Of a stretch of DNA of 64,000 bases, positions 5,808 to 50,114 are shown one piece after another. The position numbers and the translations under genes are program-made. The notes beneath the pieces were generated by a model that made no database searches, was not told the DNA's origin, and saw only the letters and a list, made by a program, of their open reading frames with translations. The DNA is from an archaeon. GTDB taxonomy: Archaea; Aenigmatarchaeota; Aenigmatarchaeia; PWEA01; JAGHBM01. The stretch covers positions 350,357 through 414,356 of the forward strand of contig CP070662.1 in NCBI GenBank assembly GCA_020355185.1, given 5' to 3'. Each line of letters starts with the position of its first letter. Within the stretch, counting starts at the first letter, position 1.

Positions 5808-5920
5808 TCTAGCGGGATTTTTACATAATCCTTATCCTTCGAGTTTTCGTGTATTCTTCTGGCCACTTCAAGCGTGGTAAGCGGTTTATAGGGCTTCTTC
5901 TTATCTTCATATTCAATCAT
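5804..5920 (-). CDS. Possible 38-aa ORF translationally coupled to the pyrD-like gene
   Basis: ATGA stop/start overlap with the pyrD-like stop, and GGAGGTG 6 nt upstream of the ATG. Product MIEYEDKKKPYKPLTTLEVARRIHENSKDKDYVKIPLD. Below the track size cut-off and not recognised. Confidence 0.3.
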   Translation of the reverse strand: MIEYEDKKKPYKPLTTLEVARRIHENSKDKDYVKIPLD

Positions 5921-6768
5921 TCCCACACCTCCTTACCTTGTTTTTCAAAATAATCATCAAGAATATGATTAAATCCGGCTTTGGTTTCATTAACAAAATC
6001 CTTTTTTGTCGGATAACGGTTTATTCCCGAGCCCAGTTGAATGGCATTTGCCCCGGCTTTCAAAAACTCTGCTACATCATTTCTGTCCACGATTCCGCCG
6101 CAGCCAAAAATAAACTTGTTCGTGAATCCTCTAGTCCTGTAGACTTGTCCGATCGCCAGAGGTTTTATTGCGGACCCGGAAAGACCGCCCAGTCTGTTTG
6201 AAAGTCCGAATTTTTTCCCCAGAACCATGGCCTTGCCCACAGAGTTAATTATAGTATAGAAATCTGCACTTTCCGAAGCTCTAATACAACTTTTGAGCAT
6301 TTTGTCAGTAGGATAATATGGCATCTTCAGACCGAAGGGTTTTTCACAATATTCTTTTCCAGCTTTACAAAGTTCTCCGAGTAGCTTGAAATCATACCCC
6401 ACGGAGCTACCCAGACCCTCAGCATGAGGACAGGATATATTGAATTCAAGGGCGTCTGCATACTTGCCCAGAAAGGTTATCATTTTCTGCAGTTCCTTTT
6501 TGTCCGAGGCAGCAAAGGAAGCTATGACGAATATATCAGGGTGCTTGATCTTGATTTCCTTTACAAAAAGTGCCACCTTCTTGTATCCAGGATTAGGGAG
6601 GCCCATTGCCTGCACCACGCCTTCATTAAATACGGCCGCATTTGGATAGTCATAGCCTTTTCTAGGTTTGTAAGTCGCGGTCTTAACAATCAACGCCTTT
6701 AAGCCCGCATCTAACCAACCTTCAAGTGAGTCAACAGTGGAAGAAAAAACACCCGAAGCATTAGTCAT
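5917..6768 (-). CDS. pyrD: Dihydroorotate dehydrogenase-family TIM-barrel flavoprotein (class 1-like)
   Basis: NISCPHAEGLG active-site-like block, GGLSGSAIKPLA, GCGGI..D..EF..AGA..QLGS FMN-binding tail. Confidence 0.7.
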   Translation of the reverse strand: MTNASGVFSSTVDSLEGWLDAGLKALIVKTATYKPRKGYDYPNAAVFNEGVVQAMGLPNPGYKKVALFVKEIKIKHPDIFVIASFAASDKKELQKMITFLGKYADALEFNISCPHAEGLGSSVGYDFKLLGELCKAGKEYCEKPFGLKMPYYPTDKMLKSCIRASESADFYTIINSVGKAMVLGKKFGLSNRLGGLSGSAIKPLAIGQVYRTRGFTNKFIFGCGGIVDRNDVAEFLKAGANAIQLGSGINRYPTKKDFVNETKAGFNHILDDYFEKQGKEVWE

Positions 6769-10281: not shown

Positions 10282-11355
10282 TCACCTGGTAATTTTCAAA
10301 TGTTTTACCGTATTATAGAGTTCACCCGCCTTTTTGTTCTTTTCAAAGTATTCCCTAGCAGGTTTTATGAGTTTATTTAGCTCAACTATCACCATTTTTT
10401 TCAAGTCTAAAGGATGAAGATTTCCCTTTCTGTATATTTTCTCAAGTTCGTCGTAACTTTGTATTTCCAAGTTTCCTCCAAACTTTTCAGGCCTTTCTAT
10501 TGTTACAGAATCCTTTTCTTTGAATATTATATATTTACAATATTCTAGAAGCGGATTTCCTTCAATAACTTTTTCCGGACAGTAAGCTTTGTTTATTTTT
10601 CTCTGTAACTCTTCAAATGACTCATGCATGTATATGCAAGTCTCGGGCTTTGATTTGGACATTTTCGATGACATTAGCGCTTCTTCTTTCGTTGCACCGG
10701 ATTTCATTCCCTGTAATCCCAATAAGATATGATGGTGCACAGCCACAGGTTTTTTCCATTTCAATTTTTCTGCAACATCCCTTGCAAGCATATGTGCTCT
10801 TCTCTGGTCCATGCCCAATTGACAAATGTCTATTTTCATGTCAAATATGTCTGTAACCTGCATTGAAGGATAGAATAACTGGGCAGTATTTATTATATCC
10901 CCTTCCTGTCTGCCCATAATAGTCAGGCATCTTTTAGTCCTGCTTAAGGTAGTTTCTTTTGCTATTCTGAGTGTTTTATCCCAATAATCCAGCTTGTCCA
11001 TTATATCCTTTGCCCATATAATCTCTACTTTATCTGTATCTATTCCACAGGCTTTCCAGACTTCTATGAAATATTTTCCAGCTGTTCTTATTTTCTCCAA
11101 ATCTCCGTCTAGCTTGTTGTTTATAAAGCCAAAATAATCTGCCAAATAAAGTTTAAACTTGATACCAGCCTTTAACATGTTTTTAAGATTTGTGGCTCTA
11201 AGAAGACCGAAATGAATCGGAGCTACTCCACTTGGTTCAAATCCATCGTAAGCTACTGGATGGTTTTTGGTTTCAAAGGTCTGTCTAAGTTCGTCCTCCG
11301 TGATAATTTCCTCTGCAAAATCTTTTATCAAATTCACTTTTGTCTCCAAGTCCAT
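10282..11355 (-). CDS. tyrS: Tyrosyl-tRNA synthetase, archaeal type
   Basis: YDGFEPSG..HFG in the HIGH region and a KMSKS loop (KMSKSKP). C-terminal EGNPLLEYCKYI...RPEKFGGNLEIQSYDELE matches my recollection of M. jannaschii TyrRS. Confidence 0.9.
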   Translation of the reverse strand: MDLETKVNLIKDFAEEIITEDELRQTFETKNHPVAYDGFEPSGVAPIHFGLLRATNLKNMLKAGIKFKLYLADYFGFINNKLDGDLEKIRTAGKYFIEVWKACGIDTDKVEIIWAKDIMDKLDYWDKTLRIAKETTLSRTKRCLTIMGRQEGDIINTAQLFYPSMQVTDIFDMKIDICQLGMDQRRAHMLARDVAEKLKWKKPVAVHHHILLGLQGMKSGATKEEALMSSKMSKSKPETCIYMHESFEELQRKINKAYCPEKVIEGNPLLEYCKYIIFKEKDSVTIERPEKFGGNLEIQSYDELEKIYRKGNLHPLDLKKMVIVELNKLIKPAREYFEKNKKAGELYNTVKHLKITR

Positions 11356-11446
11356 GAAAGCACCGTTATTTAGTTTTAATTCTTATTATTTATATTTCAT
11401 TAAAACAGATTTTAAAGATATAACAAGTAAGTACAAAGGAGATGGC

Positions 11447-12724
11447 ATGAATCTAAAATTTCTTGGAGGTGCCGGAGAGGTCGGAAGGTCAGGCGTGCTT
11501 CTGGACACGGGAAGGGAAAAAATACTGATGGATTACGGCATAAAAATTGTCAGCCAGGCCGAGGGCCCGCTCAACGCGCCCCAGATACCCATGAAGGTCA
11601 AGCTGGCACTTGACGCCATGTTGCTTTCCCATGCGCACTTGGATCATTCCGGTTTCGTTCCTAACCTTTACAACAGGGGTTACCGCGGCCCCACCTATTC
11701 CACTGCCACCACCTTCGACCTGGCGCGGATTCTGCTGAACGACAGCATAAAGCTGGCGGATCTCAGGAACCAGGAGAAATACTTCTTCAAGAAGGATCTG
11801 AAAGTCATGGAAAAGAACGAGTACAGGATAACATACGGCCAGCAGTTTGACGTGGGAAGAACTCTGGTGGGGATCTACGATGCAGGTCACATACCGGGCT
11901 CCGTGACTTTCCACCTAAACACGGGTGAAAAGAATCTGATTTATTCCGGTGACATAAAGACCAAGGACACAGAACTTCTGAAAGGCCTTGAGCCAGTTCG
12001 CGACGAAACCGATGTCCTGATAATGGAGTCCACCTATGCGGAAAGGGAACACCCTGACAGGGAGGCCCAGGAGAGGAGGCTGGCAGAAGTCATCAGGGAA
12101 ACCCTTGAGACGGGGGGAACAGCAATGGTTCCCTGTTTTGCGGTCGGAAGAGCCCAGGAAGTGCTCCTGATTCTTGAAAAGTTCGGCCTAAACAGGTATC
12201 CGATATATCTTGACGGCATGGCGGTTGATGCGACCAAGATAATCATGAAGTACCCGGAGCTGATAAAGCAGCCCAAACGTCTGGAGAAGATATACAGTCA
12301 GATTACGAAGGTTTACAACAACGGCCAGAGAAACAAGCTGGTAAACCAGCCATGCATAATAGTCACCACCTCAGGAATGCTGAACGGCGGGCCCATAGCA
12401 CATTATCTGGAAAAGCTTTATGACAGGGAGAACTGTTCCCTGACCCTCACGGGCTACCAGGTCGAGGGTTCGGCCGGCCATACACTTATCAACACAGGGA
12501 AATACGTTACAGAGGATAAAAACCTGGGAGTAAAATGCAGGCTAAGTTTCATTGACCTGAGCGCCCACTCAGGAAGAAAAGAGCTTTTCGAATACGTAAA
12601 AATGGTGGACCCCCAGAAAGTTTTCGTTATCCACGGGGACTCCTGCGGAAAATTCGCTGGAGAACTCAGGGAGAAAGGATATGACGCCTACGCCCCGAAA
12701 ATCGGGGAAGTCTGTGATGTGTAG
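11447..12724 (+). CDS. Beta-CASP / metallo-beta-lactamase RNase (aCPSF2-like, no KH domains)
   Basis: Track ORF 11267..12724, but the first 60 codons overlap tyrS antisense. ATG at 11447 gives MNLKFLGGAGEVGRSG. HAHLDHSG motif, then beta-CASP motifs and a terminal HGD. Confidence 0.85.
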   Translation: MNLKFLGGAGEVGRSGVLLDTGREKILMDYGIKIVSQAEGPLNAPQIPMKVKLALDAMLLSHAHLDHSGFVPNLYNRGYRGPTYSTATTFDLARILLNDSIKLADLRNQEKYFFKKDLKVMEKNEYRITYGQQFDVGRTLVGIYDAGHIPGSVTFHLNTGEKNLIYSGDIKTKDTELLKGLEPVRDETDVLIMESTYAEREHPDREAQERRLAEVIRETLETGGTAMVPCFAVGRAQEVLLILEKFGLNRYPIYLDGMAVDATKIIMKYPELIKQPKRLEKIYSQITKVYNNGQRNKLVNQPCIIVTTSGMLNGGPIAHYLEKLYDRENCSLTLTGYQVEGSAGHTLINTGKYVTEDKNLGVKCRLSFIDLSAHSGRKELFEYVKMVDPQKVFVIHGDSCGKFAGELREKGYDAYAPKIGEVCDV

Positions 12725-12727
12725 ATT

Positions 12728-13738
12728 ATGATTGACGTGGATGGCTCCTATCTGGAAGGCGGCGGCCAGATTCTCAGAACTTCACTTGCCCTGTCCGCAG
12801 TCACCGGCAATCCGTGCAGAATTTTCAATATCAGGAAAGGCAGGCCCAAACCCGGCCTGAAGCCGCAGCATCAAAAGGCCGTAGAGACCGTTGCCCGCAT
12901 TTGCAACGCCCAAGTGAAGGGCAACAGAATAGGTTCTGTGAAAGTTGAATTCATTCCCGGAAGTATAACGGGCGGCAAGTTTGACGTGGATATAGGCACG
13001 GCCGGTTCCATTACTCTCCTTCTCCATGCTTTGATACCCCCCCTTCTCCACGCAAACCAGGACTCGGAAATAAATTTAACCGGCGGCACGAATGTCCTCT
13101 GGAGTCCCACCACGGATTTCTTCCGTCACGTATTCTGCAGCTTCATAGACAGGATGGGGGTAAACATCCGCATGGACGTAAGAAAGCACGGTTTTTATCC
13201 CAGGGGCGGCGGGAAGGTCAGACTTAGAATACAACCCAACACCAAATTAAAGACCTTAAGTCTGACCAGAAGAGGGAGAATGGAGAGGATAGATATATGG
13301 TCGATATCCTCCAAGGACCTCAAGGAAAAAAGAGTGGCTGAGAGACAGCTTGAAGCCTTCAGGGAGGTTCTCAGGGTAAAGGGTCACGAGCACTTGGTAT
13401 ATGTGGACGCACTTTCCACAGGAACCTCAGTTCACGCCCATGCCCATTACAGCAATACGAAGCTTGGCGCCGATTTTCTGGGTGAGAGGGGCAAACCGGC
13501 CGAAAAAATAGGAAGGGAATGTGCCCTGCTTCTAAAGGGGCAGATGGACAGCGGGGCCTGCCTGGACAAATGGATGGCCGACCAGATTCTTCCTTACATG
13601 GCCCTGGCCGGAGGAGACAGGATTTATGTGGCAGAGGTAACGGACCACTGCAGGTCCAACATGTGGGTCATTGAAAAGTTTCTGCCCGTGAAATTCACCA
13701 CAGAAGAAAACATAATATCCTGCAAGAAAATAAAATAA
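12728..13738 (+). CDS. rtcA: RNA 3'-terminal phosphate cyclase
   Basis: GSYLEGGGQILRTSLALSAVTG, NIRKGRPKPGLKPQH, and catalytic His context SVHAHAHY. Lies 3 nt after the beta-CASP stop. Confidence 0.9.
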   Translation: MIDVDGSYLEGGGQILRTSLALSAVTGNPCRIFNIRKGRPKPGLKPQHQKAVETVARICNAQVKGNRIGSVKVEFIPGSITGGKFDVDIGTAGSITLLLHALIPPLLHANQDSEINLTGGTNVLWSPTTDFFRHVFCSFIDRMGVNIRMDVRKHGFYPRGGGKVRLRIQPNTKLKTLSLTRRGRMERIDIWSISSKDLKEKRVAERQLEAFREVLRVKGHEHLVYVDALSTGTSVHAHAHYSNTKLGADFLGERGKPAEKIGRECALLLKGQMDSGACLDKWMADQILPYMALAGGDRIYVAEVTDHCRSNMWVIEKFLPVKFTTEENIISCKKIK

Positions 13739-15138: not shown

Positions 15139-16002
15139 TCATTTTAACTTTCTGTACATCTTTCTGTAGGCATCTAGGCCGGCCCTGACGACCTCTCTTA
15201 TCTCCTTTTCGTGGTTTTTAACCCCGGGTCTGACATCTTCCAGCTCCTTTACCACCTTTTTGCATTCCTTTTCCACAAGGTCGGGAATTCCGAAAGGTCG
15301 TTTCAGCTCCTTCAGGTACTTCGGCGATTTTAGCTTGAATGGTATCCACATATTATTGTAACCGATGTAAAGAATCATAGCCCTTGCCAGGTTAAGTCTC
15401 CCTACCTTTATCCGCTTACTTCCGGAAGCGGAAGCCAGTCTCTTATGCTCAAAAATCTCCTCTTCAAAACCGTTTTCTATGAGTATCGTGTCCACTATCA
15501 GATCCTTCATACAAAGTATGAAGAAAGTAACCAGCTTTACAAGATCATTGAGCACCTGTTCATAGTTCTCGCCTATTCTCTCCAGAGTCTTTATTATAAA
15601 AGGCCACTGTTTTTTCCCGACCTCAGATATCCTGGGTTCTATGCCCTCTGATTTTACTATGGTATGCATGAATTCATGGGCGATGAGTCCTGTTGCGTAA
15701 CCCCTGTTTTTTATATTCGGATCCTTCAAGTTAATCATTATCTTGACCTTGTTTCCTTCCTGGACGGAGAATGAAGATACGCTCTCGGAAAGCCAGTATT
15801 CCATCTTGTCATACCTCCTGCCGGAATACATTCTCTCGGGATTTGCGATGTCCAGAAAGGCCTCCTTTGGGTTCTCGGTGAAAAGAAAGGCGACTTCCCT
15901 GAATTTTGGGATCCCCAGTCTCTTTACAACTTCGTTTACCAGCGGATAAAGGTCCTTCTTGACAAAATTCCTGTTGCTATCGGTTTTCTTGACCAGCTTC
16001 AT
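15139..16002 (-). CDS. Hypothetical protein with HExxH motif (putative zinc metallopeptidase)
   Basis: 287 aa with GLIAHEFMHTIV and no other recognisable feature. ATGA overlap with the porA stop. Confidence 0.5.
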   Translation of the reverse strand: MKLVKKTDSNRNFVKKDLYPLVNEVVKRLGIPKFREVAFLFTENPKEAFLDIANPERMYSGRRYDKMEYWLSESVSSFSVQEGNKVKIMINLKDPNIKNRGYATGLIAHEFMHTIVKSEGIEPRISEVGKKQWPFIIKTLERIGENYEQVLNDLVKLVTFFILCMKDLIVDTILIENGFEEEIFEHKRLASASGSKRIKVGRLNLARAMILYIGYNNMWIPFKLKSPKYLKELKRPFGIPDLVEKECKKVVKELEDVRPGVKNHEKEIREVVRAGLDAYRKMYRKLK

Positions 16003-17176
16003 AACAACCAGTATCTCTTGGGTTTATTTTCAAGGGACATCTTTTCGTATATCTCTAGGAAATCCTTCAGTCCTGTATGTGTTCCGCCCAGGCTGACTAT
16101 GAAGTCGGAAACCAGGGCTTCGTTATCGTAAAGGGCGGCTTTTATTTCCGGGAACACTATGCCTCCGTAACCGGGGGCAACATTGTTGTCTATAACCGCG
16201 ACTTTTTTCACGTCTTCCAGGGCTTTTTTTATTTCCTCTTCCGGGAAAGGCCTGTAAGTTCTTAATCTCAGCAACCCGACCTTCTCTCCCCTTTCCCTGA
16301 GTCTGTTTACGGTTTCCTTAACGGTGGTGGATATGGCCCCGGTGCTGACAAAAGCGAACTTGGCGTCATTCATTCTGTACTCTTCCAAAAGGCCGTAATT
16401 TCTTCCAAACTTTTTTCCAAATTCCTTCCCGACTTCCTCTATCTTCTTTTTGGAATTAAGCTGTGCTTTATGATGCTGTGCCCTGAACTCCATGTAATTC
16501 CTGCCCATGGCACCCACCCCCTGGCACATGGGTTCCTTCGGGTCCAGGACGACTTTTGGTCTGTATTTTGGCAGGAACTTGGCCACCTCAAACCTGTCCG
16601 GTATCTCCACCGGTTCCCTCGTAAAGGAGTGTATGAATCCTTCCATGTTTACCAGGGCCGGAAGCAAAACGTCTTCATTCTCGCATATTTTGTAAGCCTG
16701 GATAATGGTATCCAGGACTTCTTGGTTGTTCTGGGAAAAAAATATGAGCCATCCAGCATCCCTCATGGCCAGAATATCGTTTTCATCCGTCCACAAGGTT
16801 ATCGGTGCCGACAAACCCCGCGAGACATTAACCATCACAATCGGCAGTCTCATTCCTGCGGCCACATACATAACCTCGTGCATATACAGCGTTCCCTGAG
16901 AACTGGACGCCGTGAAAGTCCTTACTCCAGATGCCTGGGATCCTATGCACGCTGACATGACCGAGTGTTCCCCTTCAACATCCACGAATTCCCCCCTCCA
17001 TTCCCCGTCTACCTTCCACTTGGCCAGCTTTTCTATCAGCTCGGTTTCCTCATCTAGTTAGATTAACCAACTAAATTTTGAGGTGTAATCGGAAAGTTTG
17101 GTACAACTTTCACATCACAGAGACGAACTGCCCAAGCCGCGGCGGTATTACCGTCCATTAACGTCTTTTTGGTCAT
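15999..17176 (-). pseudogene. porA: Pyruvate:ferredoxin oxidoreductase alpha subunit; reading frame interrupted near codon 38
   Basis: 5' piece 17176..17066 encodes MTKKTLMDGNTAAAWAVRLCDVKVVPNFPITPQNLVG then TAA. The rest (open from 17057; track ORF 15999..16985) continues in another frame: LDEETELIEKLAKW...VDVEGEHSVMSACIGSQASGVRTFTASSSQG. Together they give a full-length PorA. Confidence 0.8.
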
Positions 17177-17225
17177 GTTTTAACAATAGTTAATTTTAAA
17201 TATATAAAACCATAAAAGACATTAT

Positions 17226-18530
17226 ATGTCACAACATATATTTCTAAATTCTAACTGGAAAGAGATAGTTGATAAGTTTAATATACCAGAAGAGTTCGTA
17301 TTACCTACGGAGAGATATTTTAAATCACATGAAAAAAATAAGCCTAATTTAAGAAAAAAATTTTTCAAAAAAGCTTTAAACGCCAAAGCTATTAGAAAAT
17401 TGGATTCTTTTAGTCTATCCCCCCAGACTAAATTTAATGTGAAATATAACTATGTTAAGTTAAAGAAAAATGAAGGTTTCATAAGATGGGATAAATTAAC
17501 TCAAAGAGAAAGAAAAGAAGAAAAAATTTATGCAGCTAAAAACTGGAGAACGGACTTGATTGAAAAACCCAAACTAAATGTAAATTTACATACTCCAGAA
17601 GGGATTAGAATTAGAATGCATATAAGAGGAGATGGTGGCATAGATAAAAATGCCAGAGTTTTTTATTTTAATAACGAAAGAAATCTTCTTGAAGAGTTTA
17701 TAAAAGATGCAATTTCTTTGTTTGGGAAATGTAGATATTCCATAGTAGACGACAGAAAAAAAGTTTACCTATCAAAAACGGTATCAAGAATTTTTACAGA
17801 TAACTTAGGCTACAGGTTAGGTAGAGAAATAGCACACGATATAGGTATAGACAAAGATATAATAAATGCAAAAAGAGAACTAAAGTCACATGCTATTAGA
17901 AGTTATTTTGACGACGAGGCAAGATTTCATTCAAATTCAATAGAAGTTGTAAGATCAAAAGATATGAGTTACATAGATAGAAATAAATTGAAGAAAATCA
18001 TCAGTAATCCAAGGAAATACTATCATTTTGCCCCTAAAGTATTATTGGATTTAAGGGAAATGTTGAAAGATTTTCAAATAAAAACTTCTTTGCCTTATTT
18101 TTACAAAGGAGACTTGCTAGTAACAGTAGATCCGTATAATAATCTTAGATTATCGGTTGGTTGGAGGTTTAGGATAACATCAGAAGAGAACATTAAAAAA
18201 TACCAACAAGAGATTGGTTTCAACCACAACAAAAAAAGAAAGTTAATAGAAGATTATTTAAAGAATATAAAAGTACATAAATCTGAAAGAAATAAAGCTT
18301 GGGAACTAGCTTTGATCAAATGCAAAGAATTGGAAAAGAAAGAAAAGCCAATATCAATTAAAAATCTTTCTTTTGTTTCAGAAAGGAGTGAAAAGCAGAC
18401 AAGAAGATGGATAAAGACCTTAGAGAAGAAAAATTTAATAGAACTTGCCAAAGGAAGAGACGTTAAACAAGGCTTAGATGGAAGATTTGTTGGCGGTTCC
18501 GAATATTTTGAATACAAACTAAAGAAATAA
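17226..18530 (+). CDS. Free-standing double-motif LAGLIDADG homing-endonuclease-like protein with C-terminal wHTH-like tail (likely mobile)
   Basis: 434 aa. LAGLIDADG-type motifs IRMHIRGDGGI and IRSYFDDEARF about 90 aa apart. Markedly AT-rich and Lys/Asn-rich compared with flanking genes. Confidence 0.75.
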   Translation: MSQHIFLNSNWKEIVDKFNIPEEFVLPTERYFKSHEKNKPNLRKKFFKKALNAKAIRKLDSFSLSPQTKFNVKYNYVKLKKNEGFIRWDKLTQRERKEEKIYAAKNWRTDLIEKPKLNVNLHTPEGIRIRMHIRGDGGIDKNARVFYFNNERNLLEEFIKDAISLFGKCRYSIVDDRKKVYLSKTVSRIFTDNLGYRLGREIAHDIGIDKDIINAKRELKSHAIRSYFDDEARFHSNSIEVVRSKDMSYIDRNKLKKIISNPRKYYHFAPKVLLDLREMLKDFQIKTSLPYFYKGDLLVTVDPYNNLRLSVGWRFRITSEENIKKYQQEIGFNHNKKRKLIEDYLKNIKVHKSERNKAWELALIKCKELEKKEKPISIKNLSFVSERSEKQTRRWIKTLEKKNLIELAKGRDVKQGLDGRFVGGSEYFEYKLKK

Positions 18531-18533
18531 GTT

Positions 18534-18677
18534 TCATTTGTTTTTCACCTTCTCCTCTTTCTCAAGAACCACGGGTCCCCTGTAGCCGCAGTCATTGCAC
18601 CTGTAAATTATTCCCAGATTGCCTCCAAGCCAGAGGTAAATGTTTTTACTTTTGCACTTTGGGCAAATCTTTGCCAT
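18534..18677 (-). CDS. Possible 47-aa zinc-ribbon protein
   Basis: MAKICPKCKSKNIYLWLGGNLGIIYRCNDCGYRGPVVLEKEEKVKNK has two CxxC pairs. Its start overlaps the last 32 nt of porD in another frame. Below the track size cut-off. Confidence 0.5.
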   Translation of the reverse strand: MAKICPKCKSKNIYLWLGGNLGIIYRCNDCGYRGPVVLEKEEKVKNK

Positions 18678-18963
18678 GCAAATCCCTCTCCATCTCTATT
18701 GCCTTTACTAGGCAGTTTACCGCGCAGATGCCGCAGCCCTTGCATATTTCATAATCAAATTCCGGTCTACCATCTTTGTCCAGCCCCACTGCGTTCTCCG
18801 GGCAGAGTTGCCAGCAGAGTCTGCACTTTATGCACTTTTCGTTACGCACGGGCTTGAAGATTCTCCAGGTCCCGGTGTTAAGTCTCTTTGCTTCTGAGGC
18901 CCTTATGACCGGAATGCCTTCTGCCCCCCTGTACTTTATCTGGTGCTCCTCAATCATTTTCAC
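18646..18963 (-). CDS. porD: Pyruvate:ferredoxin oxidoreductase delta subunit (2x[4Fe-4S] ferredoxin)
   Basis: CIKCRLCWQLCPENA and CKGCGICAVNC cluster motifs. 4-nt overlap with porG. Confidence 0.9.
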   Translation of the reverse strand: MKMIEEHQIKYRGAEGIPVIRASEAKRLNTGTWRIFKPVRNEKCIKCRLCWQLCPENAVGLDKDGRPEFDYEICKGCGICAVNCLVKAIEMERDLHGKDLPKVQK

Positions 18964-19577
18964 AACCTCATTTTGCTGTAGCAGACCTTCACGGCCCGGT
19001 TGTTTTTCTCCACCAGCTCTCCCTTGCCCTCCTCTTCCAGTTCCTTCTTAACGGCCTTTTCAAGCGTCTCCGGCGGAATCTTCCCGAAAATCTTGGCAAA
19101 GGCCCCGAGTATTGCTGTGTTTGGTATTGGAAGCCCTATTGTGTCCAGCGCCACCTTGGTAGCGTCTATGGTGTAAACCTTCTGCTTTGTTGAGGAAAAA
19201 CGTCCCGGGTATTTGTTGGTGTTAATAAGGACTTTACCGTCTTCAGAAAGGCCCCTGACCACCTCCTCCAGTTCCAGGGTGTCATCTATGCAAACCACGA
19301 AGCCGGGATCGAAAATATACCCCCTTTCCAGTATCTCCTTCCTGTCCATTCTGACAAAGGAAGTCAAAGGAGCCCCCCGTCTCTCAGCCCCGTAGACAGC
19401 GAAGCTCTGTACCTGGTATCCGGAAAGAAAAGCTGCCCTGGCCAGTATATGCGCGGCCAGCTTTATTCCCTGACCACCCCTCCCGTGAAACCTTATCTTA
19501 TACACTTCTCCTGCCCCCACGATAGTTTCCGGGATAGTTACGGCCTTGCTGCTGTCCGCGGGGCTGCCGTTCTCCAT
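18960..19577 (-). CDS. porG: Pyruvate:ferredoxin oxidoreductase gamma subunit
   Basis: IRFHGRGGQGIKLAAHILARAA and GAERRGAP signatures. The true start may lie downstream of 19577 because of an 80-nt overlap with the upstream gene. Confidence 0.9.
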   Translation of the reverse strand: MENGSPADSSKAVTIPETIVGAGEVYKIRFHGRGGQGIKLAAHILARAAFLSGYQVQSFAVYGAERRGAPLTSFVRMDRKEILERGYIFDPGFVVCIDDTLELEEVVRGLSEDGKVLINTNKYPGRFSSTKQKVYTIDATKVALDTIGLPIPNTAILGAFAKIFGKIPPETLEKAVKKELEEEGKGELVEKNNRAVKVCYSKMRL

Positions 19578-22340: not shown

Positions 22341-22481
22341 GGGCTGGTAGTCTAGTGGTTATAGACCGACACGTTTTCGTGTCTCGATCAAGACGCTGCC
22401 CTTACAAGGCAGAGGTCGGGAGTTCGACAGACTGACGTGCATTTCATGCGCGTCTTTGCGACGTTCTCCCCCGGCCCACCA
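22341..22481 (+). tRNA. tRNA-Val(UAC), two putative introns, CCA encoded
   Basis: Acceptor GGGCUGG / CCGGCCC. D arm GUCU-AGUGGUUAU-AGAC. Anticodon arm CUGCC-CUUACAA-GGCAG with anticodon at 22403-05. Variable AGGUC. T stem GGGAG / CUCCC. Interruptions: ~22367-22394 (28 nt after the D stem; AGAC repeated at both ends) and ~22428-22463 (36 nt in the T loop). Both fold into hairpins. Confidence 0.85.
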
Positions 22482-22483
22482 TC

Positions 22484-23119
22484 TTAAAACTCTCTAATAG
22501 TTAAGAAATTTCGAATTTTGTTAGACTTCCTTTCTAAAATAAGGTTCGGTAAAACATATTTTTTAATAAATTCCGCATTTTTAGAAGAAATATAAAATTC
22601 CAGTTCATACCAAGTTCCATATATTTTTCGGTTACCAATTTTACTAACTCTACTTCTTTTTGTTATTAAAGTTGAGCATTTTAAACGTTCTTTTATGGAA
22701 ATTGACAAATCTTTTGGAAATTTACCACTTGATATACGAATGGTACATTGGGGGTATTTGGGTCTTTTTATCCTCACGTCTCCGTCACCATCTATAATTC
22801 CTGCAAGATAAGAACCAAATAGCTTATCATTCTCACAAAAAATTTTAGGTGGCATTGGAGGGTCTGAAAAATATATTTTATTTTTCTCAAACATTGGAAT
22901 AAGTTTAGTTATTCCTATTTTACAGGACCAAACATCTTTTTTATTTCTCTTGAAAATACTAGATTTACTATTGAAAATCTCTTTGGAGATAGTCTGAAAT
23001 CGTTTAATTAGAATGAAATCTATAGATTCAATTTCAATTAAAAATGAGCTTTTATTTCTTTTCATCCATCCATCTGCTTGGGATAGACCAGTCCAATACG
23101 CCAATTTTTTCAATTTCAT
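22484..23119 (-). CDS. Free-standing double-motif LAGLIDADG homing-endonuclease-like protein (likely mobile)
   Basis: 211 aa. Motifs YWTGLSQADGWM and LAGIIDGDGDV about 105 aa apart. Very AT-rich. The stop codon lies 2 nt from the 3' CCA of tRNA-Val. Confidence 0.8.
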   Translation of the reverse strand: MKLKKLAYWTGLSQADGWMKRNKSSFLIEIESIDFILIKRFQTISKEIFNSKSSIFKRNKKDVWSCKIGITKLIPMFEKNKIYFSDPPMPPKIFCENDKLFGSYLAGIIDGDGDVRIKRPKYPQCTIRISSGKFPKDLSISIKERLKCSTLITKRSRVSKIGNRKIYGTWYELEFYISSKNAEFIKKYVLPNLILERKSNKIRNFLTIREF

Positions 23120-23851: not shown

Positions 23852-23932
23852 TGGTCTAAAGACTGAGCAAAGGATAATTATTTCCGGGTGGCAAAAGCAT
23901 ATTATTTAAAAGTTAACCGGCTAATATTGGTT

Positions 23933-24818
23933 ATGCAAATTGTAGGCAAAACCAACTTGCCTTTACCTGTTTTTAAGAAGGGTAAGGTAAGGGACACGTA
24001 TGAAGTCGATAGCAATCTTCTTATCATAACCACGGACCGCATTTCAGCCTTTGATTACGTTCTTTCCAATCTCATACCATACAAGGGTGTGTGTATAAAC
24101 AATATATCCAATTTCTGGTCCGACTATCTTGGGGACGTGGTTCCGAATCACTTGATTCACACGGATATCGGCGATTTTCCGCAGGAATTGCAAAAATACG
24201 AGATTTTGGGGGGGGAGAAGCGTAATAGCAAGGAAAGCGAAAGTCTTCCCTATAGAGTGCATAGTTCGTGGTTACATCTTTGGTTCGGCATGGAAATCCT
24301 ACAAAAAAGACCAGACCGTATGCGGCATAAAGTTTCCCCCGGGCATGAAAGAGTCGGAAAAGTTTGACGAACCTCTTTTCACCCCATCCACAAAAGCACC
24401 GGAGGGAGAGCATGACGAGAATATTTCCTTTGACAGGATGAAAGGGATAATAGGCCCGGATTACGCTGAAAAGCTCAGGGATCTGACCCTGGAACTTTAC
24501 GAGAAGGCCACAAAATTTGCCGAAAAGAAAGGTATTATAATCGCTGATACCAAGTTCGAGTTCGGAAAAATTGGTGACCAGGTTGTAATGGTTGACGAGG
24601 TTCTGACTCCGGATTCTTCAAGATTCTGGCCCCTCGACAAATACAAACCGGGTCACTCACAGCCAAGCTTCGACAAGCAATACGTAAGGGACTACCTTAC
24701 AGGCAAGGGATGGGACAAGGAGTCCGACCCGCCAGAACTTCCGACATACGTGATTTTGGAAACAACAAACAAGTACAAGGAAGTCCACGAGAGAATTACG
24801 GGAAGGAAACTGGACTGA
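23933..24818 (+). pseudogene. purC: SAICAR synthetase (PurC) split by a 1-nt frameshift in a G8 run
   Basis: Track ORFs 23888..24367 and 24345..24818. N-part: KGKVRDTYEVD..LLIITTDRISAFD. After GGGGGGGG at 24208-24215 the next frame reads RSVIARKAKVFPIECIVRGYIFGSAWKSY...LFTPSTKA...IIIADTKFEFG. Removing one G restores ...YEILGGRSVIARK... Confidence 0.85.
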
Positions 24819-36808: not shown

Positions 36809-39800
36809 TTACCAGGAGGCGTTTGCCATTATAGTTACAGTGCCCGCGTACGACCCCGTATACACTGGCGGGGTGTCCAGCCAGAAGTAAACCGAATGGG
36901 TTATTCCTGAATCGGCAGGCTCAATTATAGCTTCATAAGTATGGTTCATCCTGGCGGAAACACCGTAACCGGCGCATGCCCTGCACCAGCTTATGTTGGA
37001 AACTTCTATGGGCGTGGAAGTCCCCGCCATGTCCGTGCCTTTTATGTAAAGCCCCTGTGCATCATTCGAGTTCTTGTCCAGTCCGATCTGATAAGGATTG
37101 CCCGGCGCCGCTATCCCCTGAATATCCGGGTCTCTGTCTCCCCAGTCAATTTCGTCAGTGGATACATTCAGCACCAGGACCAAACCTATCCTTATCAGAG
37201 AGTTGGTTGTGTCGTTAGACGGGTTATAAAAGATAACATCTATGTTATAGTATTCATCAAGAGAGCCCGTGGAATTAACCTTCCATATAAAAGTGTAATT
37301 TTCGTCTTGGTCCAAGTTACAACTCTGGGGGTTTAGGTCAAATGTGTAAAATGGAACATCTCCCGGTGTTGTTGAAACATCTGTGTTGGGCTCAGTTCCA
37401 CTTGAATTATATCTTACTTTTCCATAAAGAGTCCCGCATCTCGATTCCTTGCATATTACAGTTGCATTTACGGTAAAGTTTTTGTATCGCGGGGTTATTG
37501 TGTTGTCCGGCGGTTCATTTAAAAACACAATCAATTTTCCTTCGGGCAGAGTTATGTTAACAGTTGTATTGTCTTCGTAACTCTCAGAAGCGTTATAATA
37601 CAAGGTGGAATTATCGGTAATGTTACACTTCGGATAGTAAACCCCATCTTCATACCAAGTTGTATCCCAGCTTCCGATTGCATGGCCCGTAGAGTTTGTA
37701 AAGTTGCTACCAAGACTTACACTATGAGTCGAGTTTTCCACATAAAAATTAACCAAATAGTCCTGTATACCCACACTGGTGTTTGAGTTTTCCACCAGAC
37801 AAGTTAAAGGAACAATTTCACCCTGAGTATAATTATCTCCGCTATCCGGCGAAATCCAGTCTACCTTGCTCCATCCCCGGACAAAGATTGTAATGCTATC
37901 CTCTCCGGAATCATAATATTGTTTTGTAACGCTTATCGTTACAAGTTCCGGTCCTACAGAGTGGCCTGACGGAACAATCCAGGTTGTATTTTCGCCAGAA
38001 GCTATATAATCTGTTGTATTTGTCCAGTTGGCCTGGTCCGGCGTGACAGCAATGTCATTTTCATCCTTGGTCGTTGAGTTCAGCCATGTCAAACTCTCAA
38101 CCTGATAAATTGATTCGTTCGCAGGATAACCCATACTTATATTTAATATACCAATGAGAGTAACAGACCCGGAGGCGTCATCGTCTGCGGCAGTGGTGTT
38201 ATAGTATGCGGACGGTTTGTTGTTTATGAGGCACCTCAAAGTTTTTGGTCCCACCGTCTCGGTTTGCGCATCCCAGTTCACTGTGGCGTAACCGGTCGAG
38301 TTCGTGTTATCCGAGTTTATGTAATCCCAGTCATCATCGTAAAAATCAACCTGATAATTTTCTATTCCGTACAAGCCGTCCTTATCAATAACCCTGCACG
38401 TGAGTGGAACCGTACCTCTGTAAGTGCTTCCCGAAGGTCCAGTCCATTCCACTTTACTTCTGCCCCAGACATCAAAAGTTTTGTATCCCAAGGAATCGTT
38501 CCAGTTCGGCGGAACAACTTGGTCGGATGCATTAATTTTCGTCACATGCACACCAACAATCCAAGAAGAGTTTGTATTAATGGTGTGATTAGTCCAGTTA
38601 TCGCCACCGATAGTTTCTGTCGCGTATCCTACTATTTGGGATGACGTGTCGTTAAACATGGTGTAAGAGTTTCCGATAGACTCGTTCCACTGTGCATAAA
38701 TCAGTAAGGCGTCGCCCTTCCAGACAACCGTATCATTTATTCCGTAAGTAATGGCAAAGGGTGGGGTTATGTCTTCCCCGGGCTCTTTGGTGGTTAAAGT
38801 CTCTGTTTTGTTGTTGTTCGAAGAGGCATTATACATGATGGCAGCATAATCGGTGATGTTGCAAACCAGCGTATCGGTTCCGTTACTGTAATCTATGTAT
38901 TTCCAGACAGCCCAGCCACTCGAGTTTGTTTGATTTGCACCCAAAATATTCGTGGAATTGTAGAAGCTGATGTTATAACCGGAAATAGCGCTTCCATTCA
39001 AATCAGTAACCCTACAACTAAACAAAGTCGAACTCCCTTCATAAATTATGTTCGGGTTCAGGTCACTGTCACTGACCTCGGACCAACCCCAGACTTCCGT
39101 TGTGTTTATCTGGGTCATGTTTTCGTTGCTCGATGAGTCGTTTGCATAAATTCTCCATCCGAGTATACCCGGGGTCATGCTCATTGGAATGGTTAATTCA
39201 AATTCGGCCCAATTTTCTATAACAATGGCATCTGCCAGCGAACTGTTTTGCCAAGTTCCTGTTTCGTTTGTTGACAGCCAGGCATAATCTAATGCCTCGT
39301 TATCATCCCAATAGGACTTATAGAGAATAGCGTCTCCCTTATGTACTACAGAAACGTTCTGGCTTACTTGCGAGTATTTGGGAGGTTCCGTCTCTATCGT
39401 TCTTAATGTTTTTATTTCGTAGTAGTCTGATGTGACGTTGTAATAAAGCGTGGAATTTTCAGTAATGTTACATGTAATGTTTTCATACCCCAAACTGTTA
39501 TCAACAAAGGTAAAACGTGCCCAGCCTGTCTGGTTTGTATTATTTGTGCCCAACTGATTTGTCGAGTTGTAGAAAACAACATTGTAACCACCAACGCCGC
39601 TTGTATTGTCAGAGACCACCCTACAATACACTGTTAAAGGATTTCCCTGGACAACAGTTGACGGGTCAAGATAGCTGCTGGGGATGCTTGACCAGCCCCA
39701 AACCTCAAAATTAAGGTGGTATAAGGTATTATTCCAGTTACCATTCAAGTCACTTGAATAAATTTTTAGGGAGTGAACCCCCAGCAACCAAGATACATTC

Positions 39801-42800
39801 GTATAAAGAGTGCGATTAGTCCAGTTACCCGTGTATGGGGGCGAAATGGTGTGGTTAAACAAGCTGAAGGCAGTATCGTTGTATTCGGTTTTTGAGTCAT
39901 TGATTTCTTCATTCCATCTTGCGTATGCGGCCAGAGAGTCCCCTCTGTTTACAATATAATCTGTCAAACCGTATATCTCATTGTAAAGCTTGGGTGGTAA
40001 TCCTTCCGTAGGTATTAAGTTATACGTGGAATAGTCTTCTTCAGTCCAAAAAGTATCGTTTATTAAAAAGTGAACGAGTTTTTTTCCAGAACCCGTGGTG
40101 ATATTGAATATGTAATAGAAAGTTACATTATTGTTAACCTGCACCAACATATTTCCTTGGGAGGTATTCCATTCAATTTTTCCGGGGGACCAGTTACCTC
40201 CAGTATAGTTTAACGTCGAGTTTTCGTACCATATATCATGCGTATGGTTTATATTCCAACTTGAGTCCAGATTTTCATGGAATATTACATCAGAAGATGT
40301 TATTGTCCAGTTTGACTCGCTGGTGTCATTAACCCAGGCAACTATTTCTGCCCTATAAACATTACCTGTGTATAAGTCAAATGTAGTATTCAAACCAGAG
40401 CCAACGGGATCTGATGTATTAGTATGTTTATCAGAGGCATCAGTTACATCAAATATCCTTATTTCTTGAATTTGAACCAAAGATAACGGCTCTGTTATAG
40501 AGAATTGATAGTAACCAAGTATATCCGAGTCGTCGTCATTTTTTAAAATGTTTCCGCTCGGGTCTGCCAGATAACCCAAAACCCTGTAAGTTCCTGCAGG
40601 CTCCAAGTCAGTATTCCATGCGCTCGGATTCCATAAAGTGTCTAGTGCCAGAGAAGCGCCTGCAGAAATGTTGTGGGATTCGTTGTTTAAAACGATTCCG
40701 CCGGAGACATCTTGCCAGCCGCCCCCGACATATCTCTGGACTTTCATAGTCAGATATCCTTTAATATCCTTATTTCCGGTGTTCTTAATTGCGGACCTGA
40801 TATAAGCAATTTTTAATTCCGGTTGGTTTGTTCCCTGGCTTCCATCAATTTCAAAGTAGGCGTTTTCACCGCTTTCATTGATTAAATATGCCACCAAATC
40901 TTTATCGGCCATGTATGATTCGTTAACACTCACCAGTACATCTATAGTTTTATTTCCGGCTGTGGATGCGCTGAAATTCCCTATGGGATTTGATTCGGAA
41001 CATTCACTCGGTTGGCCGTCATCATAAATCGTGTTTACTGGAGTGGAGGAGTTATAGGTCCCGTTTGTATGATAAACCAAGCCTGTAGCCGATGCAGAGG
41101 CTGTAACTGAAACAGTTAAATTCGCAGATAGAATTTTTGCTCCGTCCGGAATTTCACTCAGGTTGAATTTCAGATAATACCGCTGCTTTACTGTAGTGTA
41201 AGTAATATTCAATGCGGCATAATCTATAGCAAGTAAGCTGTCGTCGCCCAGATAAGTTATCTCATATCTGGCTTTAATTTCATTGGAAGAATCGTTAACA
41301 AAGTCCGACATTTTTCCGTATGCGTCCCAGCTGCCATTTACTTCATAACCCCAGTCACTTGTGCTCAAATCCCCTATATCAACCCAAGACCCGGATGAAT
41401 AATTGTAAACTTCAACGTCTTGGAAACCCACCGGCACACCCTCCGGGGAGTCCCCGTCACAGGATGGTCCTCCTCCATTGGAGCCATCATGACAGTATAC
41501 CAGTTCGAAGTTCAGTCTGGTTATGTGATTTTCATCTATCCCCAGAGAAGTTATGTTAAAGGTCAATTCACCGTAAGCGTTGGGGCTTCCGCCCTGTGAA
41601 CCGTACCACCAGTAGGAGCCGTCATCTGATTGCGTGTCTGTATAGTCCCCGCCGCTGGCATCATAAATTCCTGTTATTTGGTCATCATCCGCCAAATCCA
41701 ACGAGGTGTCGTTCTTGTATCCGATTCCAGCCGTGCCCGGATCATCTATTCTGGTTCCGTTGAACATGGCAACCACATCATAACTAGCGTTTTTCGTTGT
41801 TTCTTGGTCAATGTAACTTGTTAAATTAACATACTCCAAGGGACCATAAGAATCATCAATTGTTTTGACATTCAGAGTGGCATTGGAGCTTATGTTGAAA
41901 TAGTAAACAGAACTTTGGTTTGTTTTTCCAGCAGTGTCCTGCGCCCAAACATAATAGGAGTATTGCCCGTTTTTCCAAGTACCTGAAAAGTTGTATTCAT
42001 ATACGTCTTGCGTGTAGTTGGTCATGTCATACGCAGTATAACTTTCTTCAGGAGGTTTTACATATACCCTTACGATATTTACACCATCCCAGTCAGTTAC
42101 ATTTGCCGAGATGGTTACGTTTTGTCCATAACCCTGCGAATCGGGTGAATTTACAACATCCTTTATGAAAGGTTTGTCGTGAACAGTTATGTTTGTCGTG
42201 TTCCAAGATGGATTCGTATAAATAGAACTTTTACCGTCATAAGAAACATTAATTTGATGGTTTCCCAAAGTTTCACTTGATGAAAGCTGATAATCTACTG
42301 TTGCCAGGCCGCCGGAATCAGTAAGGTCCCAACCAATAAAGTAACCAGTGGTTGTATCGTTAAATGTTATGTTTTGATTTGGTATTTCGGTACCGTTATC
42401 ATATTTCAAATAGGCACTTACTCTAACGGTTTCCCCCCCAACCGGATCGGAATTGTTAACTGAAGGGTTTATAGTTGTATTTGCGTAGACAGTTATTGTA
42501 ACAATATCCCAGTCTGTATAACCTTCCTGGCACGAAGTATCAAGTCTAACTTCTTGCGGACCCAGCTGGGAACTTATTACCAAACCCGCTGTTATGTTGT
42601 TCCAAAAAATGTTTCCAGGGGCAAGAGTTTCATTATTTTCGTTTAAATTACCAGAGGAGTTGGTCCAACCGCTTGGTAACGTCCAGTTAAGCCATAAATC
42701 ATTTACAGTTATCACTATTGTATTATTCACATAACCTCTTAAGTCGCCGGATCCGCCCCTGGTTACGATAGTGGGATATTCGCTAATTTCAGTAGACAGT

Positions 42801-49666: not shown

Positions 49667-50114
49667 TACATACGAAATATTCCAGGCTCGGTGAATACTC
49701 TCCCCTTTGCGTGCTTACGGCGAGCTGCCACTTTCCTACCTTCACCGCCCTTACCGAAACACCATCGTTCCCATTTTTGTATTCAAGTTCCCCTTCCAGA
49801 TGTTCCAATCCCTTTGGCAGTTCCAGTCTAACGCCTTCTATTTCCGGATTAATTTTCCATTCGATAACAGACTCTTCACCAATGGACATGATAAACCCAT
49901 TTCCCGTTTTTTCAACATGCCTTATATCAAATACAGCGTCTACCTCCGGTTCCATCAAAATAATTCCCAAAGCCGCCCCCATAATTCCAACTGCAATGAT
50001 TATTATCATGATTTGGTATGGTCGGGACGATTTAGGTTGGGTATTAGATCTGGGGGGAACCAGAAACGACTCTACAAACTCCCCGACCACATGTGTATAA
50101 ACCATTTTTACCAT
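49626..50114 (-). CDS. Single-pass membrane protein (162 aa) wedged between the two giant genes
   Basis: TM helix YQIMIIIIAVGIMGAALGIILM followed by a ~110-aa beta-rich ectodomain. Overlaps the 1771-aa stop by 7 nt and the annotated 4285-aa start by 41 nt. Confidence 0.6.
   Translation of the reverse strand: MVKMVYTHVVGEFVESFLVPPRSNTQPKSSRPYQIMIIIIAVGIMGAALGIILMEPEVDAVFDIRHVEKTGNGFIMSIGEESVIEWKINPEIEGVRLELPKGLEHLEGELEYKNGNDGVSVRAVKVGKWQLAVSTQRGEYSPSLEYFVCIGTTDEDARKYCD

Follow-up and report, generated by a model that had tools for sequence, protein, structure and literature searches.

How can a porA gene be translated when the frame in which it starts is closed before the frame in which it continues has opened? 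The question is raised by a 64,000-nucleotide (nt) stretch of contig CP070662.1 from an archaeon of the Aenigmatarchaeota (assembly GCA_020355185.1, positions 350,357 to 414,356 of the forward strand), which is called the window in this text. Its porA, a gene of pyruvate:ferredoxin oxidoreductase (PFOR), lies on the minus strand. From the ATG at 17176, codons 1-37 (MTKKTLMDGNTAAAWAVRLCDVKVVPNFPITPQNLVG; tail …VVPNFPITPQNLVG) run into a TAA at 17065-17063. The frame that continues PorA is itself closed by a TAA at 17060-17058, opens at 17057 (LDEETELIEKLAKW…) and extends to the stop at 15999. Since the first frame closes before the second one opens, no +1/-1 shift can join them; an earlier note on this DNA had said so, and the reading frames confirm it. 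The best explanation that we can offer is a mini-intron of the archaeal bulge-helix-bulge (BHB) type, a reading that we regard as likely, with a neighbouring endonuclease as its possible homing partner.

Size of the porA insert

The earlier note had counted at least 8 nt to be skipped (the block 17065-17058, TAATCTAA, which lies inside a hairpin), or 8+3n nt, for example 14. Homology sets a larger unit. When the joined PorA is aligned with a solved PFOR alpha subunit, 9bt4_B, an 8-residue gap opens directly after PITPQ (PITPQ-NLVGLDEE-TELIEKL in the query, PITPQ-THIVEDL in 9bt4_B), and all of the 16 close relatives (58-87% identity, mostly labelled Aenigmarchaeota) read PITPQ|TELIEKLA. Eight codons (24 nt) plus the 8 skipped nt give a surplus of 32 nt, 17077-17046 on the minus strand, with the sequence AAUUUAGUUGGUUAAUCUAACUAGAUGAGGAA (AATTTAGTTGGTTAATCTAACTAGATGAGGAA). 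The comparison with porA of related genomes, which had been suggested as a check, thus finds intact relatives that read PITPQ|TE and fixes the surplus at 32 nt. Its removal yields a PorA of 381 amino acids (aa) that reads ...CCU CAA|ACC GAG..., or PITPQ|TELIEKLA, in register with all relatives. Because of flanking A residues the junction can slide by -2 to +1 without changing the product. The best family for the joined PorA is NCBIfam PorA_Arch (E 1.5e-134), although its 448.8 bits fall below the model's curated cutoff of 550 bits. The predicted junction peptides of the spliced protein are ...FPITPQTELIEK... and ...VVPNFPITPQTELIEK.... The gene is accordingly divided into three parts:

17078..17176, minus strand: porA exon 1 (33 codons, MTKK...PNFPITPQ), with an N-terminus that matches all relatives
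17046..17077, minus strand: 32-nt BHB-type mini-intron, delimited by homology (8-aa gap plus 8 nt) and by its fold
15999..17045, minus strand: porA exon 2 (TELIEKLAKW... to the stop), which with exon 1 gives the 381-aa PorA

The same site in other archaea

We could find inserts at the identical codon junction in other genomes. A scan with one genome per species gave 80 porA loci, of which 79 were informative for the intron and for the endonuclease gene described below; four of the 80 (L006, L015, L032 and L043) carry an insert. Six more contigs were found by a metagenome pattern search that allowed a gap of 14-44 nt between the codons for PITPQ and TExIE..A.WK, and another seven contigs with an insert at the junction were reached through the neighbouring endonuclease. 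Including the window, there are 15 distinct alleles with inserts of 29-36 nt, in porA genes of the Aenigmarchaeota and Woesearchaeota types (DPANN). This count comprises L006 and L015, whose in-frame inserts are invisible to a screen on split high-scoring segment pairs. Every one of the 15 inserts contains an in-frame stop, and several shift the frame as well. In a tree of PorA, alleles with the intron are dispersed and stand next to sisters that lack it.

Two candidates were dropped in the course of this survey. The first seven alleles had suggested that insert length is never a multiple of three, a rule that was later broken by lengths of 30, 33 and 36 nt. L041 had been considered as another porA interrupted near its N-terminus and was ruled out, as this part of the gene (about 5870-5970) is masked by a run of N and is uninformative for the presence of an intron.

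The recurrence of the insert bears on one of the explanations listed in the earlier note, a local assembly or sequencing error. Small indel errors are possible in this assembly, since purC in the window is frameshifted in a run of eight G residues. The porA insert, however, is a structured, non-repetitive sequence of 32 nt and not a homopolymer error, and comparable inserts occupy the same site in 14 other alleles, which derive from assemblies and projects independent of each other (NCBI, JGI, ENA and Logan). With 15 independent alleles that keep intact, selected frames, the probability of an error is next to nil.

Function of the interrupted genes

Excision of the insert restores an intact open reading frame (ORF) from ATG to stop, 375-401 aa long, in every allele with complete sequence. 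These frames are under purifying selection. L083 and L086, which have near-identical introns, differ by a dS of 0.31 and a dN of 0.020 (dN/dS 0.065). The introns of L032 and L082/L085 are clearly homologous, while the synonymous sites of these genes are saturated and the proteins share 67-76% aa identity. Compared with its intron-less sisters, the porA of the window has a pN of 0.09-0.11, equal to that between two intron-less sisters.

A true pseudogene, in which a 32-nt insertion inactivated porA and left the gene to decay, had also been proposed. It would agree with the two stops and the frame shift in the insert, with the lack of a linked porB, and with a second frameshifted gene, purC, in the window. 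However, no other defect is found in 1,143 nt, and the pN against the sisters is at the level of intact genes. Moreover, the 14 other alleles with an insert at this site keep full ORFs, with the low dN/dS given above between intron-bearing alleles, and decay offers no explanation for the covarying RNA helix described in the following section. Intact ORFs and purifying selection together lead us to exclude both a pseudogene and an assembly artefact; the former is in any case very unlikely.

The gene calls for the interrupted porA genes are truncated or split (328, 349, 337+41, 323 and 291 aa). When the metabolism of DPANN archaea is reconstructed from their genomes, pyruvate:ferredoxin oxidoreductase may thus be counted as absent or defective, simply because gene callers divide or shorten porA.

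Fold of the probable mini-intron

The last six bases of exon 1 are CCUC-AA and the last six bases of the intron GAGG-AA, and CCUC pairs with GAGG. Between these two strands lies a 10-bp hairpin, AUUUAGUUGG-UUAAU-CUAACUAGAU. The 4-bp central helix CCUC/GAGG ends exactly 2 nt ahead of each junction and is joined to the inner hairpin by a 3-nt bulge. Along the minus strand, the elements are as follows:

17080..17083, minus strand: central-helix strand H (CCUC, comprising the Pro codon and base 1 of the Gln codon, in exon 1), ending 2 nt before the 5' junction
17077..17079, minus strand: bulge of 3 nt on the 5' side, AA|A, in which the cut is predicted to follow the second nt
17052..17076, minus strand: inner helix h' of 10 bp (17076-17067 with 17061-17052) and 5-nt loop (17066-17062), which hold the block 17065-17058 and both stops
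17048..17051, minus strand: strand H' of the central helix (GAGG), an intron sequence whose end is 2 nt short of the 3' junction
17045..17047, minus strand: 3' splice region AA|A, with no exon-exon outer helix to close it

In archaeal BHB motifs the cut is made between residues 2 and 3 of the bulge (PMC2738675). The 32 nt and the six exon bases form a relaxed motif of this kind (HBh'), and its predicted cut sites coincide with the junctions defined by homology. The earlier note could not draw a convincing BHB by eye; once the unit is taken as 32 nt, the relaxed form fits. The bulged hairpin of 21 nt that it described does exist, but folding makes it only the inner part of a larger structure. 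The unconstrained minimum free energy (MFE) fold consists of the CCUC/GAGG helix stacked on a hairpin of 9-10 bp, at -14.2 kcal/mol. As a statistic on a single sequence this is modest (z = -2.3; 3 of 200 shuffles are equally good), and the weight of the structural evidence lies in the 15 alleles.

All alleles show pairing between two groups of four bases, one ending 2 nt short of the 5' junction and the other 2 nt short of the 3' junction. Among the first seven alleles, register 0 alone gives 28/28 paired cells and full helices in 7/7, as opposed to 0-2 full helices in other registers; in five of these seven the junction given by homology is unambiguous and equals the cut predicted by the BHB rule. 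An alignment of 14 alleles has 56/56 cells of the central helix paired, a value that none of 500 shuffles reaches, and partners slid out of register pair at 36-69%. The helix is also paired in L015. The third base of the Pro codon covaries with its intron partner (A-U in six alleles, G-C in three, U-A in two, U-G in two and G-U in one of the 14), so that a synonymous codon position changes together with an intron base; here RNA structure would constrain codon choice. The inner hairpins, of about 8-10 bp, adjoin the 5' bulge in all alleles and are alike in placement although unrelated in sequence. The free MFE fold is identical to the BHB model in 8 of the 14 alleles. Folds are stronger on the sense strand (summed energies of -194 versus -131 kcal/mol) and include 20 G-U pairs, which points to a structure of RNA rather than DNA.

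The set of alleles also allows two translational explanations to be judged. In the first, translational bypassing, the ribosome would hop over the insert as it does in T4 gene 60. A stop soon after the junction, a hairpin in the gap and a length of 29-36 nt, which is of the right order, would suit such a hop. The take-off codon (CAA or CAG), however, matches the landing codon in 0/14 alleles, only one allele has a CAR codon in the exon 2 frame within the insert, and both the covariation and a 4-bp helix placed 2 nt before each junction would be left unexplained. Bypassing, another of the earlier suggestions, is thus highly improbable.

In the second, exons 1 and 2 would each encode a polypeptide of its own, and the two would then assemble. 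Nanoarchaeum is known to have split protein genes, and a possible in-frame start lies shortly ahead of exon 2 in 8 of the 14 alleles (a GTG in seven of them and a TTG in L095). Against this, the open stretch that leads into exon 2 lacks a start in the other six alleles, one of which is that of the window; here the first start is a GTG at 16985, whose use would cost about 20 conserved, selected residues. Where the GTG is present, it is itself strand H' (GUGG), which pairs with CCAC. We consider a split gene extremely improbable.

Probable splicing of the porA transcript

The earlier note listed its four possibilities with no preference among them. The evidence favors the one in which the archaeal splicing endonuclease removes a very short piece from the RNA, with a unit of 32 nt. 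Given the recurrent alleles, the selection on their frames and the low probability of the rival explanations, the most economical reading is that the tRNA-splicing endonuclease (EndA) and the ligase RtcB act on the RNA, and very probably the 32-nt intron is cut from the porA mRNA by these enzymes. In the transcript, exon CCUC would pair with intron GAGG, which would place the 5' splice site in the 3-nt bulge between central helix and 10-bp hairpin and the 3' site 2 nt past GAGG. EndA would cut after the second bulge nt on each side, and RtcB would join the exons to an mRNA for the 381-aa PorA.

It is established that all archaea encode EndA and RtcB. The capacity for unusual splicing is suggested by an unannotated tRNA-Val(UAC) with encoded CCA at 22341-22484 on the plus strand. 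It scores 19.7 bits with Rfam in a permissive search and was missed by ARAGORN and by Rfam at gathering thresholds, both of which returned nothing for the window. The low Rfam score is due to two non-canonical inserts, one of 29 nt in the D-loop (22363-22391) and one of about 35 nt in the T-loop, which starts at 22425 and has an uncertain 3' junction. A set of 1,500 double excisions consistent with the BHB rule contains only two that yield a tRNA. The inserts imply a splicing endonuclease of broad specificity, and they bear out the earlier impression that this genome is rich in introns. DPANN EndAs that have an L3 loop are reported to occur together with tRNA genes that are disrupted (PMC5829648).

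Next to the 3' end of the tRNA-Val, and abutting it, lies an ORF of 211 aa with a LAGLIDADG domain (22484-23119, minus strand; PF14528, E 3.7e-7). By sequence it is unrelated to the porA-linked endonuclease described below (BLASTP E 1.6). The two neighbors may represent a second pairing of an endonuclease with an intron-bearing gene in this genome.

Several points weigh against an excised intron. One concerns the fold: a conserved exon-exon outer helix h (exon -7... with exon +2...) is not found in the alleles. The motif is therefore the relaxed HBh' and not the strict hBHBh', and cleavage at the 3' site needs an endonuclease of broad specificity. Coding fixes three of the four pairs of the central helix (CC of Pro and C of Gln), so that the covariation rests on one pair and the inner helix. 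When the window is scanned for BHB motifs in general, the result is non-specific, with hundreds of matches, and a scan combined with an ORF-fusion filter gave about 2,500 matches with equally many for decoy bulge geometries, which makes it uninformative. The 25 ORFs of the window that were scanned include neither EndA nor RtcB. An exact look-up of nine spliced PorA proteins had no hit on record, a result that is uninformative too. Finally, porB is missing from the window, although this is also the case in intron-less sisters, and the gene is unlinked to porA in the window's clade.

A LAGLIDADG gene beside the probable intron

The region upstream of porA holds a second gene of interest, a free-standing ORF in divergent orientation. 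It is part of a cassette inserted into an otherwise conserved por cluster:

17226..18530, plus strand: gene for a 434-aa protein that resembles LAGLIDADG homing endonucleases and has a winged helix at its C-terminus; free-standing and divergent from porA
17177..18533, no strand assigned: cassette of about 1.36 kb with the endonuclease gene, between Zn-ribbon ORF/porD and porA, absent from sister genomes
18534..18677, minus strand: Zn-ribbon ORF, part of the upstream por cluster (18534..19577)
18646..18963, minus strand: porD, part of the same cluster
18960..19577, minus strand: porC, part of the same cluster

In relatives the order is porC-porD-(Zn ribbon)-porA. The bounds of the cassette follow from the comparison with L001 and L004, in which homology ends at about 18534-18550 and resumes in porA. 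Between the start codons of the two divergent genes there are 49 nt, and the distance from the ATG of the endonuclease gene to the start of the intron is 148 nt. The short spacer between the start codons (17177-17225, containing TTTATATATTTAAAA) is AT-rich; the two genes may have a promoter in common or promoters set back to back, and the porA mRNA may have almost no leader.

The assignment of the 434-aa protein comes mostly from its predicted structure. In sequence libraries it has only a weak match to an NCBIfam intein region (E 3.6e-5); Pfam gave no match, and neither did a search of PDB sequences with the family profile. Its AlphaFold model (pLDDT 88) finds the TliVMA and PI-PfuI intein endonucleases, I-Tsp061I and I-DmoI as top Foldseek matches (E 2e-6 to 1e-3, TMt up to 0.63). 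According to this model, the protein is predicted to have the LAGLIDADG fold with two motifs in one chain. The motifs RMHIRGDGGI and YFDDEgRFH are invariant, and D136 (IRGDGG) and D230/E231 (FDDEG) are present in 10/10 members of the family. By analogy with I-DmoI, we take these acidic residues to be catalytic.

The family is small, with 10 members among 5.8 billion proteins, and wherever the neighborhood is visible its members adjoin the 5' end of porA divergently. We noticed some shorter members (L096, 1934-2842; L093, L094, L095 and L032, P0127-P0130), which measure 302 aa, or 375-378 aa. Those of 375-378 aa are without about 50 residues of the N-terminal region. It could be that the short members are degenerating, as happens in a homing cycle.

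Association of the insert and the endonuclease-like gene

The presence of the endonuclease gene is tied to that of the intron. Wherever the junction is on the contig, endonuclease-bearing alleles carry the intron (10/10 distinct alleles). Five alleles (L015, L081, L082, L083 and L086) have the intron only, and none has the endonuclease only. Within the genome sample, which is unbiased, the endonuclease occurs at three of the four intron-bearing loci and at none of the 75 intron-less ones (79 informative loci; hypergeometric p about 5e-5, not corrected for phylogeny). At least 1.5 kb of upstream sequence was verified for 36 of the intron-less loci.

Close relatives display both parts as insertions. 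Over 4.3 kb, L043 and the approximately 90%-identical L035 differ by only two indels of at least 3 nt, a cassette of 1339 nt and an intron of 29 nt, which are 141 nt apart. L087 and L083 differ by the cassette alone (about 1360 nt). Together with the comparison of the window with L001/L004, these pairs give three cases of presence/absence polymorphism of the cassette.

We see an even chance that the intron and the free-standing LAGLIDADG endonuclease beside it are partners in collaborative homing. The endonuclease would have intron-less porA as its target and cut it where it encodes the conserved PITPQ|TE. Repair from a donor with intron and endonuclease would in every case copy the intron, and in most cases also the endonuclease gene, which lies at a distance of 140-150 nt. 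By splitting the recognition site, the intron would protect its carrier. Collaborative homing should generate alleles with both parts and alleles with the intron only, but none with the endonuclease only, and this matches the observed pattern. We would tentatively, and with some doubt, extend the idea to a two-part selfish element in Archaea, in which a BHB mini-intron serves as immunity determinant and which homes into PITPQ|TE codons among DPANN.

The homing part faces objections of its own. The cleavage target of the endonuclease is a prediction from sequence. Between cassette and intron, the identity of L043 and L035 dips to 0.75-0.87, as co-conversion would predict, but a value of 0.73 is also reached elsewhere, and the dip is within noise. 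The association could in part reflect co-inheritance, and WhiA-type regulators, which combine LAGLIDADG and helix-turn-helix (HTH) domains, are also among the fold matches of the 434-aa protein.

It is therefore necessary to consider a spliced intron without collaborative homing. The endonuclease could target an intergenic site of its own, with the intron hitch-hiking, or it could be a domesticated WhiA-like regulator or a splicing helper. The C-terminal winged helix and the fold match to WhiA would be in keeping with the latter, as would transcription divergent from porA, similar to that of a local regulator. In addition, the type of intron tracks the endonuclease clade, which fits co-inheritance, and L087 and L083 differ by the cassette alone. 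However, the acidic residues of both LAGLIDADG motifs are invariant in the porA-linked family, while those of WhiA are degenerate. Disruption of a target by the intron predicts the observed combination of alleles with both parts, alleles with the intron only and never the endonuclease only; hitch-hiking does not. The patchy spread among sisters of about 90% identity likewise argues for mobility. On balance, a spliced intron that is no partner in homing seems rather unlikely, though it deserves to be taken seriously.

Other features of the window

When the gene map of the window was examined for other split genes, only purC was found besides porA, and it has no intron. This gene for SAICAR synthetase (23888-24818, plus strand) is divided into two overlapping ORFs by one extra G in a run of eight at 24208-24215, the only homopolymer of at least eight residues in the window. 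Deletion of one G gives an intact PurC of 309 aa. We regard purC as a plain frameshift, caused either by a homopolymer sequencing or assembly error or by a real indel.

Translationally coupled to porA on its downstream side is not porB but a gene (15139-16002, minus strand) for a conserved HExxH protein of 287-290 aa, 71% identical to its counterpart in L003 (7140-8012); no Pfam family was found for it. In L043 and L032, porB is adjacent to porA. An RNA end-processing pair, a beta-CASP/RMMBL RNase (485 aa) followed by RtcA (336 aa, 12728-13738), is encoded at 11267-13738 on the plus strand. Two giant ORFs on the minus strand, 36809-49666 (4285 aa) and 50108-55423 (1771 aa), occupy 18 kb of the window.

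Comparison with known systems

In the literature that we consulted, crenarchaeal cbf5 is the only protein-coding gene with an EndA-type intron, and a paper from 2025 still cites only cbf5. In our searches we came across no description of BHB introns in porA or in the mRNAs of DPANN archaea, and of none that is coupled with a free-standing endonuclease. If our reading is correct, the porA inserts would be a second, independent family of mRNA introns. They would interrupt a gene of central metabolism in DPANN archaea and would be the first BHB introns of an mRNA outside Crenarchaeota. They would also provide a first, concrete mechanism of mobility for protein-spliced archaeal mini-introns.

The cbf5 pre-mRNA introns of Crenarchaeota are 16-44 bp long, have a relaxed BHB and are gained and lost among relatives (PMC2738675). 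Their splicing has been seen by cDNA (PMC2738675; Watanabe 2002; Yoshinari 2006; Yokobori 2009). The porA intron resembles them in being short and ORF-less, in its fixed codon position within a conserved motif, in its unconventional BHB and in its patchy distribution. The two differ in their hosts, which are Crenarchaeota/TACK with a heterotetrameric EndA for cbf5 and DPANN with enzymes of the alpha4/L3 type for porA, and in that splicing of porA is deduced from sequence whereas that of cbf5 was seen by cDNA. The origin of the cbf5 intron is unclear, and it was described as 'too short ... to encode such a nuclease' (PMC2738675). The porA intron, unlike that of cbf5, has a dedicated free-standing homing endonuclease.

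The non-canonical tRNA introns of DPANN and Crenarchaeota (HBh'; Marck & Grosjean 2003, cited in PMC5829648) share with porA a central helix, one true bulge and an inner helix, and introns of this kind are also present in the tRNA-Val of the window. The porA mRNA, unlike a tRNA, must be translated, and one strand of its helix is constrained by codons.

The endonuclease has its closest counterparts in I-DmoI and I-Tsp061I of archaeal rRNA and tRNA BHB introns, which have the same motif class and the same fold and are its best structural matches in the PDB. The ORFs of these enzymes lie inside introns of stable RNAs, whereas the porA endonuclease gene lies outside, on the opposite strand and about 150 nt away from an intron in an mRNA.

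A similar arrangement is found in phages. In cyanophage S-PM2, a group I intron in psbA blocks self-cleavage while the free-standing endonuclease F-CphI gives mobility (Zeng, Bonocora & Shub 2009, as summarized in PMC6083498), and trans-homing is also described for T4 mobE and I-TevIII (PMC2790892). As in porA, the psbA intron is ORF-less and sits in a conserved gene beside a free-standing endonuclease, and the pattern of porA alleles fits the same logic. The psbA intron, however, is a self-splicing group I ribozyme, whereas the porA mini-intron would be a BHB intron spliced by proteins. The phage endonucleases are Endo VII-like or HNH enzymes that act in phages, while the porA-linked one is a LAGLIDADG protein on a cellular archaeal chromosome, with a predicted cleavage of porA.

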